DNA of 64,000 bases. Source: an uncultured Candidatus Saccharibacteria bacterium. GTDB lineage: Bacteria; Patescibacteriota; Minisyncoccia; Phycocordibacterales; PALSA-1337. Position numbers and translations under genes: made by a program. Below are positions 41,427-51,108 of this stretch, piece by piece. The notes below the pieces were generated by a model. That model worked only from the letters and a program-made list of their open reading frames with translations. It did not search any database and had not been told where the DNA came from. The first letter of the stretch is position 1, and each line of letters opens with the position of its first letter. Location of the stretch: the NCBI GenBank assembly GCA_964470105.1, contig CAYXZI010000001.1, forward strand, positions 37,521 to 101,520, given 5' to 3'.

Positions 41427-41933
41427 TTATAAAACCGCACTATTAAACTTTTTTTCATTTATGAGACTTTCCGCCTTTTGTGCAAGTTCAAAAAGAGTAC
41501 CTAGCTCGATGGTACTAAGTATTCTAGGCTTTGTATCCTTAACACAAAAAACTCCCACTGGCATACCTGATGCAGAATCTATTAATGCAATACCAGCATA
41601 AAACCTTATATATGGCTCACCTACCACATATGGATTATTTTTAAATCTTTCATCTTTTAAAGTATCCTCAACGATAAATGCATCTTTAGATATTAGAGCC
41701 CAGCTACAGAAAGCAATGTCTCTAGGACCTTGCTTATTTGATACACCCTGACAAGACTTGTACCATTCTCGATTTTCATCAATTATAGATATTGTAGAGA
41801 TTGGAACACTCATTCTCTCTAGTGCTTCTTTAGTTAAACTATCAAAAATTGGATCTGGGTTTGTATCTAGTATCCCCATTTTATGAACTACATCTAATCT
41901 CTCATTTTCTTTTTTATATAGTGGTGCTTTCAT
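41427..41933 (-). CDS. GAF domain protein
   Basis: FYAGIALIDSASGMPVGVFCVKDTKPR matches the GAF core (YAG.PL....G...G.LCV.D..PR). Confidence 0.65.
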   Translation of the reverse strand: MKAPLYKKENERLDVVHKMGILDTNPDPIFDSLTKEALERMSVPISTISIIDENREWYKSCQGVSNKQGPRDIAFCSWALISKDAFIVEDTLKDERFKNNPYVVGEPYIRFYAGIALIDSASGMPVGVFCVKDTKPRILSTIELGTLFELAQKAESLINEKKFNSAVL

Positions 41934-42008
41934 TTTTTTTAAATAATTAAAAATAATCCAAACATTGTTGGACTTCGTAGAGTCTCTTTAATACTATTAT
42001 ACCACAAA

Positions 42009-42449
42009 TCAATCAACTACCTTTTCTATACCAACAAAAAATAGAATCTTACCATTTGTATCTACTATAGGCGAAATATGTAATTCTGCTTTATAGATAA
42101 CCCCATCTTTCCTCTTATTATTAACAACTACACTTATATTCTTCTTCTCGTCTTTAATTGTCTTCCAAAGATGTTGGTAAAACTCTTTAGGCATCTGACC
42201 TCCCCATAATGAGGGTCTTTTACCAATAATTTCTGACATACTGTACCCAGTCATCTTTTCTACAAGTTCATTAGCAAACAATATTTTCCCATCAATATCA
42301 GTTATAACCACCTGTTCCTCAATTTGATTAAATATATAATTCAATGAACCACATCTATGGCATTTGACCTCATAGTACACACTATCGGTAACAGCTAGAA
42401 GTTTCTTGCATGAATTGCATCTAAATTCATTTTTATCCTTTAAGCTCAT
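42009..42449 (-). CDS. Com-type zinc-ribbon fused to a PAS domain
   Basis: N-terminal FRCNSCKKLLAVTDSVYYEVKCHRCGSLNYIF (CxxC-17-CxxC, like phage Mu Com-family ribbons). It is followed by a PAS fold (ITDIDGKILFANELVEKMTGYSMSEIIGK ... DGVIYKAELHISPI). Confidence 0.6.
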   Translation of the reverse strand: MSLKDKNEFRCNSCKKLLAVTDSVYYEVKCHRCGSLNYIFNQIEEQVVITDIDGKILFANELVEKMTGYSMSEIIGKRPSLWGGQMPKEFYQHLWKTIKDEKKNISVVVNNKRKDGVIYKAELHISPIVDTNGKILFFVGIEKVVD

Positions 42450-42492
42450 TTGGCAATAATATCACAAATATTGAATGGAACTAAACTTTCTG

Positions 42493-42565
42493 AGCCAAAG
42501 GTGAGGATCGAACTCACGACCCCAGCTTTACGAAAGCTGTGCTCTACCAACTGAGCTACTTTGGC
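42493..42565 (-). tRNA. tRNA-Thr (anticodon CGU)
   Basis: Cloverleaf: acceptor GCCAAAG/CTTTGGC, D-arm AGCTCAGTTGGTAGAGC, anticodon stem CAGCT/AGCTG with loop TTCGTAA, T-arm GGGTC-GTGAGTTCGATCC. Confidence 0.85.
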
Positions 42566-42724
42566 CAAAGTACCCCAGGAAAGTATGGGCACCGTTATAG
42601 TTACGGCATGTTCGGTATTAACGTGGAAGCCACTACTCCGAACACTTACCCAGGCATCACGGGTATCTAATCCGCATAGTCTTACTCTCCTGGAGCTCTT
42701 TTATACTAACATAATTATGAAAAA

Positions 42725-42800
42725 TGGAGCCGACGATGAGGATCGAACTCATGACCTCTCCATTACCAATGGAGTGCTCTACCAACCGAGCTACGTCGGC
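42725..42800 (-). tRNA. tRNA-Thr (anticodon GGU), CCA-encoded
   Basis: Acceptor GCCGACG/CGTCGGC, anticodon stem CTCCA/TGGAG with loop TTGGTAA, T-loop TTCGATC, 3' UCCA encoded. Confidence 0.85.
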
Positions 42801-42847
42801 ACAGTGCTAAGAATAGTCTATTTATTGACTTTTTTCAATTAAATTCA

Positions 42848-42880
42848 AATGGCCGCTGCGTCTCCGCTACGGCCATTTTT
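42848..42880. terminator. Bidirectional-looking GC hairpin after the tRNA-Thr pair
   Basis: AAATGGCCG-(14 nt)-CGGCCATTT, a perfect 9-bp stem with TTTTGT following on the plus strand. Confidence 0.4.
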
Positions 42881-42911
42881 GTAATACAGTATTCATTTCG
42901 TAAAATGATAG

Positions 42912-43190
42912 TTATTTCGTTGCTTTTTTCCCAAAGTCAGAAGTCTGACTGGGAAGTGACGTGTTTTCATTACGGTCGTCCCGTAGAAAACACGAATCCC
43001 ATACTCTCTTCTTCACTTTAGGTTTTCTTGGATGAAGTTCCTTCACAAAGTATCCTTTGTTAAATTGACTCGTTTCCCCACCACAGCACATGCTGTAGTT
43101 ACCAAGGGGTGTTGGTGAGCTATACCAGGCAACAATATAGCACAAAACAAGAAAAAGGTGAAAAACCATCAAACCAACCATGATTAGCAT
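42912..43190 (-). CDS. Hypothetical small membrane protein (uncertain)
   Basis: 92-aa ORF with one N-terminal TM helix. Its 3' third contains two strong hairpins (AGTCAGAAGTCTGACT; CGTGTTTTC..TACGG-TCGTC-CCGTA..GAAAACACG), so the real CDS may be shorter or the region may be RNA. Confidence 0.3.
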   Translation of the reverse strand: MLIMVGLMVFHLFLVLCYIVAWYSSPTPLGNYSMCCGGETSQFNKGYFVKELHPRKPKVKKRVWDSCFLRDDRNENTSLPSQTSDFGKKATK

Positions 43191-43245
43191 GACCTCTAAT
43201 ATTTACTTTATATAAAATATACCTCGACACAGCTAAACGAATTTG

Positions 43246-43319
43246 CGCGATTGGCGGGACTCGAACCCGTAACCTCCCACGTGACAGGCGGGTGCTCTAA
43301 CCAGTTGAGCTACAATCGC
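43246..43319 (-). tRNA. tRNA-Asp (anticodon GUC)
   Basis: Acceptor GCGATTG/CAATCGC, D-arm GCTC..GAGC, anticodon stem CCCGC/GTGGG with loop CTGTCAC, T-loop TTCGAGT. Confidence 0.85.
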
Positions 43320-43458
43320 ATTTTAATGAAATCTTCAAAAATCACCCTTTTCCTATCGAGGAAAAGCCTACATTCCTTATTATACATAATTCTGTATAAT
43401 TTCAAAGCTCCAAAGATATTCTCTCTAAGCAACAAAAGACTGACACAGCGAATCAATG

Positions 43459-43532
43459 TGCCGATGCCTGGACTCGAACCAGGGACCTTCTCTTTATGAG
43501 TGAGATGCTCTAGCCACCTGAGCTACATCGGC
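43459..43532 (-). tRNA. tRNA-Met (anticodon CAU; elongator or Ile2-lysidine type)
   Basis: Acceptor GCCGATG/CATCGGC, anticodon loop CTCATAA, T-arm CCTGG-TTCGAGT-CCAGG. The anticodon stem has an A.A mismatch and lacks the three G-C pairs of initiators. Confidence 0.8.
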
Positions 43533-43635
43533 GTTAATTTAGCTTATCAAGAATATAGCAAAAAATACAGATGATTACCAGTTTTAGCAGATTATATGAT
43601 GGCGCCACCTACTAAACTACAGCTCGATATGAGTT

Positions 43636-44346
43636 TTATGAGTTACCTTCCAAAATATACAGTTCATTTTTTATATCTTGAAGATAGGTATCGAGGATAT
43701 TAATTATCTGTGTTTTGTCAGGTAAAGAAGTGATTTTAGTTACACCATTTTTAACCACCAATATTAAACCTTTAAATTTATTACTTGGAAACAACAGTTC
43801 TCCTTCAAGATTTGTTGTATTAATAAGTGTCTTCAAAAGTTGTTTCTCGTCAGTAGATTTTAATAGATTCACTCTAAATTCCTCTAACTCAACTATCTTG
43901 CTTCTAATCTCCCTTACTCTCAAAACATCTTTATTTTTATCTGTAACCTCATCCAATCTACCTTTGTATCTATCAACCTCCCTTTCTAGTATGGCAATCT
44001 TTTCTTTAAGATTTATTATCTCTTCGCGTAGCTCATCATTCTGCTTTGTTAGATATATATTTTGCTGCACTACACCCTCATCTTTCACTATCTTTTCAAC
44101 TATTTTCGGCACCTCTTTAACTACCACTTTTTCAACTGGAACTATTGTGTCCTTTTCTAAAGTTTTATTTATTGGGACATTGTTTGTAATATCTATATCT
44201 GATCGTGGAGCATTATACATCTCAATCTTTTTATTCCAAGTAGTAGGATTCCACCAAACCCCAAATGCAATTCGAGGTATTAATAATATAAATAAAACTA
44301 GAGTAATTGATCTCTTCACAAAGATAATTGTATCATATCGAACCAT
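43636..44346 (-). CDS. Membrane-anchored coiled-coil protein (hypothetical)
   Basis: 236 aa with an N-terminal TM segment, then a long heptad-rich Lys/Glu region (EEIINLKEKIAILEREVDRYKGRLDE...). Antisense ORF 43715..44359 rejected. Confidence 0.5.
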   Translation of the reverse strand: MVRYDTIIFVKRSITLVLFILLIPRIAFGVWWNPTTWNKKIEMYNAPRSDIDITNNVPINKTLEKDTIVPVEKVVVKEVPKIVEKIVKDEGVVQQNIYLTKQNDELREEIINLKEKIAILEREVDRYKGRLDEVTDKNKDVLRVREIRSKIVELEEFRVNLLKSTDEKQLLKTLINTTNLEGELLFPSNKFKGLILVVKNGVTKITSLPDKTQIINILDTYLQDIKNELYILEGNS

Positions 44347-44499
44347 TAAACATATGTGATATGTATGATTGATCTTATAACTTCAAAAGAGGCTTAGAGT
44401 TGATAATATAAACTTCTTCATGCAGATGATAATAACACAATAAAAACCGAAGAGAACACGTGCTTATTGTGTGCGTTTCATAAAAAGATGTCTTACTTG

Positions 44500-44572
44500 T
44501 TGCGGGGGCCGGAATCGCACCGGCAATCTCCAGGTTATGAGCCTGGCGGGTTACTGTTACCACTACCCCGCT
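44500..44572 (-). tRNA. tRNA-Met (anticodon CAU), initiator-like (A1.A72 unpaired)
   Basis: 5' AGCGGGG / 3' CCCCGCAAC gives an unpaired 1-72 plus A73, as in bacterial tRNA-fMet; anticodon stem CCAGG/CCTGG with loop CTCATAA; T-arm GCCGG-TGCGATT-CCGGC. Only two of the three canonical G-C pairs next to the anticodon loop. Confidence 0.7.
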
Positions 44573-44613
44573 ATTGAAGAATATACTACCACAAATATAC
44601 TAGTGCAGGCAAG

Positions 44614-45225
44614 TTATATATGGAAAAATTCCTCGAAGACCTTTCTATATAGTTGTATTACCCTTCTAGCATCATATTGACTGAAATTATAGTCCGATCC
44701 AGCATGTGCTAGTTCATTTCTAACTTTATGTGCTTCCCATGCATCATCCAATGTCTTAAATTCAGCTTTAGTTGCCCTCTTTAGCTGCTCACCGATACTA
44801 TCTCCTTTATACCCCAAACCCTTTAGTACCTCTCCTAAGATTATATCTGCCTCAATGATTGCTTGCCTCCAATCATTCGGATTCTGTGACTCTACATGTT
44901 TTAAAGCCATATCCCATTTCTTTGCTATTTCTGGATTACCCTCGGCTTTAACTGTCTTTCCTGTACCATACAAATCAATTTTTACACCATACACCTCATG
45001 CTCTTCTCGTATTCTTAATGCCTTTAGTCTTTCGACAGTGTATATAATTAGAAGAAAGAGAAGAAGAGATATGGGTATTGATATACCAATTATTAAACCT
45101 ATTGCTGATTTCGTAAATTCTATCAATTGAGGATAGTTTTCAGCCAAATATCTTAAGACAGTTGTAAGATACGGTTCAAAATCAACCGATGGTGACTGTA
45201 CGATATCTATTTCATTTTCTTGCAT
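44614..45225 (-). CDS. Membrane-anchored protein with a C-terminal HEPN-like (RNxxxH, HepT/DUF86-like) motif
   Basis: 203 aa; a TM helix around residues 40-62; the C-terminal region AWEAHKVRNELAHAGSDYNFSQYDARRVIQLYRKVF carries the R-N-x-L-x-H signature of HepT-type HEPN RNases. Confidence 0.4.
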   Translation of the reverse strand: MQENEIDIVQSPSVDFEPYLTTVLRYLAENYPQLIEFTKSAIGLIIGISIPISLLLFLLIIYTVERLKALRIREEHEVYGVKIDLYGTGKTVKAEGNPEIAKKWDMALKHVESQNPNDWRQAIIEADIILGEVLKGLGYKGDSIGEQLKRATKAEFKTLDDAWEAHKVRNELAHAGSDYNFSQYDARRVIQLYRKVFEEFFHI

Positions 45226-45236
45226 ATTTTTAAATA

Positions 45237-46652
45237 CTATTTAACCAAAAAATCTTTACCGACTTCAAACAGAGTCTTTTCATTTCCATGGGAAGCGGTC
45301 ATCTGTATACCTAAAGGCATCTTGTTTGAATTTACACCTGAAGGTATCGACATAGCTGGTAGGCCAGTGAGATTAGCTGTAACAGTGAAGATGTCCTCAA
45401 GATACATTGCAACTGGATCGGAATTCTTTTCACCAATCTTGAATGCAGGTGTTGGTGTTGTCGGTGTTAGTATTATATCAACTTTCTTGTATGCTTCCAT
45501 AAAGTCATTGGTGATAACTTTACGAAGTGAATTTGCCCTATTGTAGTATGCATCATAATACCCAGACGAAAGAACATAAGTACCTAATAGTATTCTCCTT
45601 CTTGCCTCTTTTCCAAAGCCAGCTCCTCTTGATTCAAAATAGTCTGCGATACCATCTTTTCCATCTTTATGTAATCCAAAACGTACACCATCAAAACGAG
45701 ATAGATTCGTTGATACCTCTGCAAAGTTTAGAATGTAGTATACGGGTAGCGCTTGTGCTGCATTTTTTAATTCAATATCTACAACCTCGTATCCTTTTTC
45801 TTTTAGCTTAACTATTGAATCATTAAAATTAGATATGATTTCCTTATCGATACCACCGATACTTAGGAGTGATTTTGGTATACCAATGACCGGCTTACCA
45901 CCAACCTTTTTGATTGTATATGTTTTATCACTAATTGTTGTACTATCTTTGATATCTACACCTCTCAAAACATTAAATACTATCTCATTATCATCAACAT
46001 TCTTTGAGATGGGGCCAATTTGATCAAAAGATGAAACTGCAGCCATTAGTCCATATCTTGAAATTGAGCCGTAAGTAGGTTTAAGCCCCACAACACCACA
46101 AAATGCAGATGGTTGCCTTACAGAACCGCCGGTATCTGAACCTAATGCGACCAGACACATATTAGCAGCTACTGCTGCTGCAGAACCACCAGAAGTACCT
46201 CCAGGTACTCTAGTCTTATCATGAGGATTACGAGTTACACCATATGCAGACTTCTCTGTAGAACCACCCAATGCAAATTCATCCATATTTGTTCTTCCTA
46301 AAAAGACAGCATTTTCCTTCTTTAACTTTAATATTGCAGTTGCATCATATGTTGCTTTATAGTTCTCAAGAATTTTAGAAGCAGAACTTGCTCTTCTCTC
46401 CTTTATTAAAATATTATCTTTAATACCAAAAGGAATCCCAGTTAAAATACTTGCAGTTCCATCTTTAAACCTCTTATCAGCCTCCTTAGCTTGTTCTACT
46501 ACATCATCAAACACCTCTAAATATGCATGTATATCTGTATCGTTCTTCTTAATTTCATTTAGGTAAGCATTAGCTAAATCGACTGCAGAATATACACCAT
46601 TCTTCATATCATCATGTGCCTTTTTAATTGTAAGATTTGATAGATCTATCAT
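45237..46652 (-). CDS. gatA: Glutamyl/aspartyl-tRNA amidotransferase subunit A
   Basis: Amidase signature (GGSSGGSAAAVA..., catalytic Ser in GGTSGGS) and K in the DxxGSIRxP region. Confidence 0.95.
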   Translation of the reverse strand: MIDLSNLTIKKAHDDMKNGVYSAVDLANAYLNEIKKNDTDIHAYLEVFDDVVEQAKEADKRFKDGTASILTGIPFGIKDNILIKERRASSASKILENYKATYDATAILKLKKENAVFLGRTNMDEFALGGSTEKSAYGVTRNPHDKTRVPGGTSGGSAAAVAANMCLVALGSDTGGSVRQPSAFCGVVGLKPTYGSISRYGLMAAVSSFDQIGPISKNVDDNEIVFNVLRGVDIKDSTTISDKTYTIKKVGGKPVIGIPKSLLSIGGIDKEIISNFNDSIVKLKEKGYEVVDIELKNAAQALPVYYILNFAEVSTNLSRFDGVRFGLHKDGKDGIADYFESRGAGFGKEARRRILLGTYVLSSGYYDAYYNRANSLRKVITNDFMEAYKKVDIILTPTTPTPAFKIGEKNSDPVAMYLEDIFTVTANLTGLPAMSIPSGVNSNKMPLGIQMTASHGNEKTLFEVGKDFLVK

Positions 46653-46654
46653 AA

Positions 46655-46942
46655 TTAATCTTGTGCAATTATCTTTTTAACAGCGATAAAATCCCCCTCT
46701 CTATCTGGGGCTTCATTTAAAATTAATTCTCTATCGGGATTAGATTCGGAAACATCTTCTCTAAATACATTTCTATTAATTCCTGCATCCGGAACTTGAT
46801 CATTATTAACTGTAGCCTTTTTAATTTGGTCTACATATACAAGGATTGCATCTATATCCTTTGTAAGATCGAGTTTTTCTGACTCATCAAGCTTAATACG
46901 AGCCAAATTAGCTAGTTTTTCTATATCTGTAACCGTTATCAT
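46655..46942 (-). CDS. gatC: Glutamyl/aspartyl-tRNA amidotransferase subunit C
   Basis: 95 aa; ITVTDIEKLANLARIKLDESEKLDL... typical of GatC; immediately upstream of gatA. Confidence 0.85.
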   Translation of the reverse strand: MITVTDIEKLANLARIKLDESEKLDLTKDIDAILVYVDQIKKATVNNDQVPDAGINRNVFREDVSESNPDRELILNEAPDREGDFIAVKKIIAQD

Positions 46943-46966
46943 ATTGTGATTTTAGCACAGAAAATG

Positions 46967-49465
<2,499 letters not shown>

Positions 49466-49919: not shown

Positions 49920-50528
49920 TTATTTAATTCTCTGTGATACCCTAGTCTGAACCGAAAAATCAACTTTTTCCTTAGCCTTTACACCACTCTCGCCCTGTAA
50001 CCAGAAGAAAGCGTATGGTTGTTGATTTGATTCATTACTAACTTCAACGATTGATGCGGTTATCTTAATATCACTTGATGTTAGATCTTGAAAATCATCT
50101 TGATGTATACCCGCGCCACAATATGCTTCTTGAGCTTTTAGAATTTTTTGTCCAGTTTCATCGTATCTATATGCATATATTAAATTACACTTTTTGCCAT
50201 TAGTATCCACAGAAATATTTGAAGATTTGAAAGCCATTGTCCATTTACCAGATGTAATCTTCTTACTTTTATTATTGAAATAGTTTTCATCTATTACCCC
50301 ATTATCATTATCTAAATCATAATCTCTACCAACCCTCATTTCCCTAGACATAGATTCAAGTGCAAAATTGAGATTGTTAATTGTAGTCTTTAGACTAATT
50401 GATTTTCTATTGGCATCCATAACTTTCAAAAGTGCACCGACAGCAACCACAGCGACTACAGTGAAAATAGCGAGTGAGATAATCATCTCTACCAAAGTAA
50501 ATCCATTTTGTAATGATCTTTTTTTCAT
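49920..50528 (-). CDS. Pseudopilin (prepilin-type N-terminal cleavage/methylation domain)
   Basis: MKKRSLQNG|FTLVEMIISLAIFTVVAV. Confidence 0.7.
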   Translation of the reverse strand: MKKRSLQNGFTLVEMIISLAIFTVVAVVAVGALLKVMDANRKSISLKTTINNLNFALESMSREMRVGRDYDLDNDNGVIDENYFNNKSKKITSGKWTMAFKSSNISVDTNGKKCNLIYAYRYDETGQKILKAQEAYCGAGIHQDDFQDLTSSDIKITASIVEVSNESNQQPYAFFWLQGESGVKAKEKVDFSVQTRVSQRIK

Positions 50529-50529
50529 C

Positions 50530-51108
50530 TTATTTTACTGATATTTGACCTGTTGATCTTATCTCGATCTCTCTTTTTGTACCATCACTTGCTGCAACAG
50601 TTATCTTTGCATAATTCGAAATCTTTTCATTACCTCTAATGATAGCATTTGGATTAGGACGATCAAATATTATATCTAGGTTATTAACAGCGGTACAGCC
50701 AGAATCGATACACAAACTATCTATCTTACTACCTCTTGTAATTGAGGTTTTAGATAACTTTTCATCGATTGTTGTAGTATCATTGTCCTCTGCATCGTAC
50801 ACATAGTCATGATCTAGATCCACAAAGAATGCGTATTCAGTTGGCTGATTAGTACTAAAATGCACACCGTACGGCAGAAGGAAATCATTTGTATTTCTAC
50901 TAGCACTTTTAACATTTAGACCGTAGGATTGTGCATTACGTATTGAAAGAGCAACATCATAAGCTAGGTTTTTAAGCAAAACTCCCTGATTGAAAGTTCC
51001 ATATTTAGACAAAAGTAATGCCGTCATTACAGCAAAAATTGCAAGCGAAATTAGTAACTCTATAACAGTAAATCCCCCATTTGTATTTTTTAAATTTACT
51101 TTCTTCAT
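50530..51108 (-). CDS. Pseudopilin (GspH/FimT-like minor pilin)
   Basis: MKKVNLKNTNGG|FTVIELLISLAIFAVM. Confidence 0.7.
   Translation of the reverse strand: MKKVNLKNTNGGFTVIELLISLAIFAVMTALLLSKYGTFNQGVLLKNLAYDVALSIRNAQSYGLNVKSASRNTNDFLLPYGVHFSTNQPTEYAFFVDLDHDYVYDAEDNDTTTIDEKLSKTSITRGSKIDSLCIDSGCTAVNNLDIIFDRPNPNAIIRGNEKISNYAKITVAASDGTKREIEIRSTGQISVK

Follow-up and report, generated by a model that had tools for sequence, protein, structure and literature searches.

The HEPN nucleases characterised so far in prokaryotes act, almost without exception, as toxins or immune effectors. The stretch of DNA analysed here (64,000 nucleotides, referred to as the window) holds a gene for a small membrane protein, which we call protein X, that carries a HEPN-like motif and lies beside a cluster of tRNA genes, and this raises the question of whether X is another defence or stress protein or has a different role in the cell. 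A first-pass annotation, made from the sequence alone, had leaned towards an undescribed defence or stress module. In our analysis, X is instead vertically inherited and fixed directly after gatC and gatA, which suggests that this predicted HEPN RNase serves in housekeeping or signalling.

Gene X and its genomic context

The open reading frame (ORF) reported at this place is present, with an ATG start and a product of 203 aa that has the sequence quoted earlier (Table 1). Its C-terminal segment, KVRNELAHAGSDY...YDARRVIQLYRKVF, contains the R-N-x-x-x-H signature that the first-pass annotation had pointed out, and the one transmembrane (TM) helix proposed there corresponds to the single strong hydrophobic segment of the protein. 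The remark that no MNT-like nucleotidyltransferase gene is adjacent also holds, the neighbours being gatA upstream and a tRNA gene and a coiled-coil ORF downstream. The presence of gatA, which ends 11 nt upstream of the X start codon, had gone unmentioned. No terminator-like site was found between gatA, X and the tRNA gene in a terminator scan, and given the short gap and the lack of an intervening site, co-transcription and translational coupling of X with gatA are very likely. Promoter-like sites near X occur only at the level expected by chance, and an Rfam scan of positions 42000-47200 gave nothing besides the five tRNAs.

Table 1. Features of the X locus, with positions counted from the first nucleotide of the window
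Feature	Position	Strand	Evidence or remark
ligA, upstream in the conserved block (context, no functional claim)	46967..48988	-	NF005932, 818 bits
gatC	46655..46942	-	TIGR00135, 55.6 bits (cut-off 47.1)
gatA	45237..46652	-	TIGR00132, 538 bits (cut-off 481)
Gene X, third in the predicted gatC-gatA-X operon	44614..45225	-	ORF and full-length homologues; stop codon 44614-44616
Acidic N-terminal tail of X, aa 1-40, predicted extracytoplasmic	45106..45225	-	2 K/R versus 7 D/E
TM helix of X, aa 41-63	45037..45105	-	19-residue Kyte-Doolittle maximum 2.79; conserved columns; AF2 helix
HEPN-fold domain of X, aa 97-203, predicted cytoplasmic	44617..44937	-	H1, H2, insert helix, H3, H4
R169-N170-E-L-A-H174, catalytic-type Rx4H motif	44704..44721	-	C-terminal end of helix 3
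Initiator-like tRNA-Met(CAT)	44499..44572	-	ARAGORN, Rfam; 41 nt downstream of the X stop
Rest of the conserved tRNA array (Met, Asp, Thr, Thr), with variable ORFs in the spacers	42492..43532	-	
tRNA-Met	43458..43532	-	ARAGORN, Rfam
tRNA-Asp	43245..43319	-	ARAGORN, Rfam
tRNA-Thr(GGT)	42725..42800	-	ARAGORN, Rfam
tRNA-Thr(CGT)	42492..42565	-	ARAGORN, Rfam

The neighbourhoods of homologues had been suggested as a place to look for MNT or coiled-coil partner genes; gatA lay directly upstream of X on the same strand in all 86 loci found through X by tblastn (X 41-93% identical). The spacing in these loci, measured to the first in-frame ATG of X, is usually about 1-40 nt, with an apparent overlap in three. 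Five neighbourhoods obtained by exact protein look-up, two of them with SH3b-containing variants of 484 and 607 aa, also have gatA directly upstream of X (5/5), at gaps from an 11-nt overlap to about 100 nt. Upstream of gatA, gatC was called in four of the five; the 3.8-kb contig of P0163 has only a short unannotated gene at the gatC position. The linkage is as strict when approached from the other side. Among 80 metagenomic loci chosen by GatA similarity alone (53-80% identity), 66 have a complete gatA and at least 700 nt of downstream sequence, and in all 66 the next gene downstream of gatA, in the same orientation, encodes the X domain. Related loci conserve gatC upstream of gatA, and ligA precedes gatC in 48 of the 51 loci holding enough sequence. 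X is the third gene, after gatC and gatA, of the ligA-gatC-gatA-X block in every related locus examined. An apparent GatA-X fusion protein, P0126, proved to be a gene-calling artefact: in its contig the gatA stop is at 602 and the X start at 615 (code 11), and translation of the locus does not give the fused query.

A search for gatB with motif regular expressions and an approximate B. subtilis GatB query, which is a weak test, found none in the window or in the 86 loci. X itself does not qualify as a GatB/YqeY tail domain, as it shows neither GatB_N nor GatB_Yqey nor a GatB-like fold. Since the whole ligA-gatCA-X-tRNA block is syntenic, adjacency alone is no proof of a link between X and GatCA or tRNA.

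Family, fold and membrane topology of X

X homologues are abundant. A word-indexed search returned 1660 clusters at 90% identity, the best 120 of which cover 86-100% of the X query, and an HMMER scan with a profile of 52 sequences found 2840 clusters at 50% identity (E up to 1e-3), 757 of them reaching 1e-30. All named records of the family are Patescibacteria/Parcubacteria. The organism-named records among the best 120 matches belong to Patescibacteria (Taylorbacteria, 'Patescibacteria group'), GTDB-representative records are named Taylorbacteria, Nomurabacteria, Paceibacteria, Parcubacteria or Minisyncoccia, and one GTDB-representative record of the family is placed in the Patescibacteria group, Parcubacteria group. 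Many family records bear the label 'uncultured Candidatus Saccharibacteria', which is generic and which we consider unreliable.

X passes the threshold of no Pfam family and matches nothing in NCBIfam, PADLOC or PHROGs. The source names of its homologues read only 'hypothetical protein', and the cluster names of ten further members are uninformative. The literature on HEPN proteins in Patescibacteria/CPR, on GatCAB in Patescibacteria and on membrane-anchored HEPN proteins yielded no description of the X family. New here are a separate, very large, Patescibacteria-restricted family, its fixed position in the gatCA operon, its housekeeping-like evolution and its variants with SH3b ectodomains. 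Naming the family, with its 2840 clusters at 50% identity, would remove a recurrent 'hypothetical protein' from Patescibacteria genomes.

The HEPN assignment starts from the motif. R169, N170 and H174 are invariant in all 52 aligned homologues, as are H166, A173, G176, D127, W104 and the N115/D118/W119 cluster, and R-N-x3-H is kept in all 280 full-domain family members, the most divergent and the longest ones included. A single motif of this kind could be fortuitous, but its invariance in both sets shows that in X it is not due to chance; conservation of R and H in homologues, proposed earlier as a check of the HEPN idea, was thereby confirmed. The AlphaFold (AF2) model computed on the 52-sequence alignment has a mean pLDDT of 81.6, with 10-residue block means of 83-95 in the C-terminal domain, the last three residues excepted. 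Its helices (H1 98-111, H2 116-137, an insert helix 144-150, H3 159-178 and H4 183-200) fit the published description of HEPN domains in the placement of the insert helix, of the motif in the C-terminal part of H3 and of D127 in H2 (PMC3710099). In HEPN domains, Rx4-6H closes helix 3 or opens the H3-H4 loop, and R169-x4-H174 lies in the C-terminal half of H3. Many HEPN families also conserve an acidic residue of helix 2 close to the motif (PMC3710099); in the X family, H2 holds the invariant D127 together with E125, which is conserved at 90% or more.

Pfam searches point the same way, at low scores. HEPN_Swt1 (PF18731) is the only recurrent Pfam match, found in 32 of 52 full-length and 23 of 30 domain-only sequences and spanning profile positions 19-109 of 115, and the matches of the 23 domain-only members are sub-threshold throughout, with no score above 20.3 bits. 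The window protein scores 18.8 bits at full length and 20.3 bits with the domain alone, below the gathering threshold of 27.5, and its E-value of 0.00071 is the best among the 30 domain-only sequences. Other weak Pfam matches of the family include four further HEPN families. PDB sequence searches, run with the protein itself and with profiles of the full length and of the domain alone, returned nothing related, and Foldseek E-values are weak (0.06 or higher). R169 and H174 were equated with the catalytic residues via helix topology. From these lines of evidence we conclude that the X domain belongs to the HEPN superfamily, where it lies closest to the Swt1/Abi2 clade and makes up a separate family. 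The first-pass annotation was right in calling the protein HEPN-like with an RNxxxH motif; its attribution to the HepT/DUF86 type did not stand, the nearest Pfam family being Swt1-like.

The rest of the protein is dominated by its membrane segment. With a cut-off of 1.6 for a 19-residue Kyte-Doolittle window, aa 41-63 is the only part of X that exceeds it. Over 15 residues, the mean number of K+R rises from 0.96 before the TM helix to 4.65 after it (52 members); by the positive-inside rule this charge bias puts the HEPN domain in the cytoplasm and the acidic 40-aa N-terminus outside. The TM helix itself is unusually well conserved, at a small-xxx-small pair (G43/G47) and at S49, P51, S53 and G59, there is no variation at E65, R71 and E74 in the juxtamembrane stretch that follows, and the AF2 model draws one long helix across the TM segment (residues 32-78, pLDDT 85-96). 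The segment looks like a helix-packing or signal-transmitting element, not a passive anchor.

Some relatives are larger than the window protein, with 49 family members reaching 260-696 aa. A crude hydropathy count gave one TM segment before the domain in 112 members and two in 122, while the 48 members in other classes are in part single helices split by the method. Where the window protein has its tail of aa 1-40, relatives have a TM1 and a loop of 0-450 aa, often with SH3b repeats. In the long forms, repeats matching SH3_3 lie between TM1 and TM2 (42.7 bits in P0265, where the gathering score is 27). Bacterial SH3_3 domains are known for cell-wall binding. In the general plan of the family, a short cytoplasmic N-terminus leads into TM1, which is followed by a variable ectodomain and TM2, and the HEPN domain lies at the end, in the cytoplasm; the window protein, with one TM helix, is the minimal form.

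The tRNA array and the inheritance of X

ARAGORN and Rfam agree with the earlier description of a five-tRNA cluster with an initiator-like tRNA-Met beside X, and an A1xA72 mismatch in this first tRNA-Met is an initiator-like feature. A tRNA-Met follows X within 300 nt in 43 of 73 loci of the X-selected set and in 38 of 57 loci of the GatA-selected set, and the order Met-Met-Asp-Thr-Thr recurs in many related loci, with the first tRNA-Met inverted in about a third. This synteny between the tRNA genes and X is looser than the link between gatA and X. As the array is syntenic across relatives, it represents an ancestral gene order and is not a mark of insertion; the suggestion of an integration hotspot at the tRNA cluster is not supported.

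Two further ORFs (42912-43190 and 43636-44346, the latter with a coiled coil) had been described as interleaved with the tRNA genes. They do exist; a role as partners of X was rejected, as they have no homologue in 166 related loci and other ORFs replace them in the closest relative. In that relative (L004), where X is 93% identical and the flanks are syntenic, the corresponding inter-tRNA spacers hold unrelated ORFs. Pfam, NCBIfam and PADLOC matches of both ORFs amount to coiled-coil noise only. The inter-tRNA spacers are variable slots, and X is the fixed part of the locus.

Signs of mobility are absent from X itself. Across loci, its identity co-varies with that of GatA, LigA and GatC (Spearman 0.43-0.56, all p below 0.001), and the GC content around X (0.36-0.39) equals that of the flanks, with no anomaly. 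Searches of 50,697 phage records, 72,556 plasmids and IMG/VR contigs found no X homologue, and the PADLOC defence models leave X unmatched, while its gene context is fixed in 152 loci. X is inherited vertically, and a defence-island reading of X is not supported. The idea of a defence, abortive-infection or toxin module had to be given up in view of the fixed operon place of X and a divergence that tracks its housekeeping neighbours. A HEPN gene beside tRNA genes need not mean a defence island.

Predicted function and relation to known systems

We hold with moderate confidence that X is a housekeeping-expressed, inner-membrane-anchored, cytoplasm-facing HEPN endoribonuclease, the activity being predicted. 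It would most likely work as a metal-independent endoribonuclease at the cytoplasmic face of the membrane and, given its probable co-transcription with gatC-gatA, is expected to have the expression of a housekeeping gene, unlike a toxin restrained by an antitoxin. In HEPN RNases generally, the active site is built from two Rx4H motifs across a dimer, as in HepT, Csm6, Cas13 and Ire1/RNase L. The small-xxx-small TM helix of X and the juxtamembrane helix with E65, R71 and E74 may set or transmit its dimer state, and the SH3b repeats of longer relatives could couple that state to the cell wall or envelope, following an Ire1-like logic. X is possibly controlled from the envelope; the window protein has no ectodomain, so envelope sensing cannot be the general mode of X. 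Several HEPN nucleases prefer tRNA (PrrC/RloC, some HepT), and together with the strict gatCA linkage this makes tRNA the leading guess for the substrate, one to which we give low weight because ligA is equally syntenic without a functional tie.

A more far-reaching version, which we consider doubtful, would make X a bacterial counterpart of Ire1 coupled to transamidation: a transmembrane sensor RNase with an envelope-set oligomeric state, whose target would be a specific tRNA, or mischarged Glu-tRNAGln/Asp-tRNAAsn, or mRNAs near the membrane. The SH3b ectodomains of the relatives would then bind peptidoglycan, possibly that of the host cell of episymbionts. If this were true, the state of the cell surface would be tied directly to translation in Parcubacteria, and a major bacterial lineage would, for the first time, have a housekeeping, non-conflict HEPN nuclease among its core genes.

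The gatC-gatA linkage, absolute in both directions (86/86 and 66/66), speaks for another reading, in which the HEPN-like domain is a non-catalytic adaptor. It would bind RNA, tRNA or a nucleotide, or dock GatCA(B), and so hold part of the tRNA-dependent transamidation machinery at the membrane. In that case X would act as an accessory subunit, structural or regulatory, whose gene takes the usual gatB place of a gatCAB operon; it does hold the post-gatA position, with gatB missing from the window and the 86 loci by the weak test described above, and many HEPN domains are non-catalytic binders, for example those of sacsin, the KNTase C-terminal domain and Swt1 (PMC3710099). However, such non-catalytic domains usually lose Rx4H, whereas the X family keeps R, N and H in 280/280 members, and the acidic residue D127 of H2 is also invariant. 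In addition, ligA is syntenic too without a functional tie, and synteny in small genomes is weak evidence of interaction. It is the invariance of R, N and H that argues for catalysis, and we regard an adaptor as unlikely.

Precedent would favour a solitary HEPN toxin, abortive-infection or defence effector at a tRNA hotspot, perhaps acting with the neighbouring coiled-coil or membrane ORFs, since toxins and defence effectors make up most of the HEPN proteins of prokaryotes (PMC3710099); abortive-infection systems often include membrane proteins, and the inter-tRNA spacers beside X really are slots for variable genes. Yet gene order and operon position are identical in 152 of 152 informative loci, X diverges along with its housekeeping neighbours at an unremarkable GC content, and there is neither an antitoxin or MNT gene nor a relative among PADLOC models, phages, plasmids and viral contigs. 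With the supposed partner ORFs lacking homologues in the 166 loci and replaced by different ones in the closest relative, this explanation is very unlikely. We find it highly improbable that the domain is not HEPN at all but a generic four-helix bundle, such as a signalling or oligomerisation module, in which R-N-x3-H is conserved for structural reasons.

As a predicted membrane-anchored HEPN endoribonuclease, X can be compared with several known systems. The Swt1/Abi2-like HEPN clade (PF18731) has the same HEPN fold of four helices, and its Rx4H motif likewise has N next to R. By the Pfam threshold X falls outside HEPN_Swt1, and it differs in its TM anchor and gatCA operon context; known bacterial members of the Swt1 clade are fused to AAA+ ATPases or lie among restriction-modification genes, and a PIN domain is part of eukaryotic Swt1 (PMC3710099). 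HepT-MNT can be set aside because X has no MNT gene and no DUF86 match (NTP-transferase and DUF86 models gave none at E up to 1), and, in contrast to HepT (DUF86) toxins, X is membrane-anchored, housekeeping-like and vertically inherited.

A membrane-tethered HEPN protein had at first been thought an unusual architecture. It is less so, as Anantharaman et al. described three groups of TM-linked bacterial HEPN proteins in 2013 (PMC3710099, section 15): the STY4199 type, with an Abi2/Swt1 HEPN domain after a single TM helix, DUF4145 with a WP-TM domain, and HEPN-2TM-Zn-ribbon proteins. For such proteins the authors proposed surface-stimulus-dependent RNA cleavage, in analogy to Ire1 (PMC3710099). 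In these groups, as in X, a well-conserved TM helix is followed by a HEPN domain that lies in the cytoplasm and is apparently active. X further resembles the STY4199 type in its single conserved TM helix (aa 41-63) before an Abi2/Swt1-type domain (nearest to Swt1), but it has no conserved globular all-alpha domain ahead of that helix and gives no match to the Pfam model HEPN_STY4199 at E up to 1, and is therefore not a STY4199-type membrane HEPN protein. A 40-aa tail, or TM1 with an SH3b ectodomain, takes the place of the all-alpha domain, and X is restricted to Patescibacteria and locked to gatCA; none of these features was reported for the groups of 2013. With the SH3b-2TM-HEPN variants, the surface-stimulus idea gains a concrete case that can be tested.

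The same variants fit the layout of the eukaryotic Ire1/RNase L KEN proteins, in which an ectodomain and a TM helix are followed by a cytoplasmic HEPN RNase that depends on oligomerisation. A kinase domain is missing from X, the HEPN fold is circularly permuted in KEN and the two are without sequence relationship, so the likeness is one of analogy only. RNase Y is a membrane-anchored housekeeping endoribonuclease of Firmicutes with KH and HD domains and is metal-dependent. It shares with X the N-terminal TM anchor, a cytoplasmic catalytic domain (predicted in X) and a housekeeping type of expression, whereas its fold and chemistry are unrelated to those of X.

Conservation of the membrane segment

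In the membrane-anchored HEPN-like protein (X), the transmembrane helix and the catalytic domain are conserved to the same degree. G43 and G47 form a small-xxx-small pair, S49, P51, S53 and G59 are also conserved, and just inside the membrane (aa 64-79) E65, R71 and E74 are invariant. Because both the transmembrane and the juxtamembrane residues are conserved, the sequence suggests that this segment serves specific helix packing or signal transmission.

tRNA-Met and the inter-tRNA spacers

The tRNA-Met gene directly following X encodes an A1xA72 mismatch and an anticodon stem with G30G31:C39C40 plus A29:U41. By sequence it is initiator-like, although one of the three canonical G:C pairs is missing and two are present. 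About 60-67% of the related loci have the same 73-74-nt tRNA-Met after X, in inverted orientation in about a third of those.

Between the conserved tRNA genes, the spacers serve as slots for variable genes. In L004, the closest relative (X 93% identical, flanks syntenic), the same spacer positions are occupied by ORFs unrelated to those of the window, and no homologues of the two window ORFs were found among 166 related loci. Just beyond the tRNA array lie genes for two small sensor-type proteins (window 41427-42449), both of which are kept and syntenic in L004.

Features of the tRNA array, its spacers and the surrounding neighbourhood
Feature	Location	Strand	Position or context
X transmembrane helix	window 45037-45105	-	aa 41-63
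tRNA-Met	window 44499-44572	-	directly after X
236-aa ORF, transmembrane and coiled-coil	window 43636-44346		inter-tRNA spacer
92-aa ORF	window 42912-43190		inter-tRNA spacer
ORFs of 216, 243 and 68 aa	L004 4540-5963 and 6287-6493		same spacer positions
Com-type zinc ribbon and PAS domain protein	window 42009-42449	-	beyond tRNA array
GAF domain protein	window 41427-41933	-	beyond tRNA array
Pilin-like, PF07963	window 49920-51108	-	upstream of ligA
Pilin-like, PF07963	L001 1-665		upstream of ligA
Pilin-like, PF07963	L085 6713-7725		downstream of X

The gatCA-X block and its neighbours

One database protein, P0126 (L086 84-1268), resembles the GatA C-terminus fused to X. This apparent fusion was rejected, as under genetic code 11 the L086 contig carries a separate gatA ending at 602 and an X gene starting at 615, and translation of the called gene does not give the database protein. 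P0126 is probably an artefact of gene calling or genetic code, and the 1.7-kb scaffold carrying it is possibly chimeric.

In gatCAB operons, gatB usually adjoins gatC-gatA. No gatB was detected beside gatC-gatA or elsewhere in window 1-64000 or in the 86 related loci (L001-L086), a weak test given that the GatB query sequence was approximate. Three loci have pilin-like genes near the ligA-gatCA-X block that carry the N-terminal methylation motif (PF07963), and the wider neighbourhood therefore has more recurring gene content.
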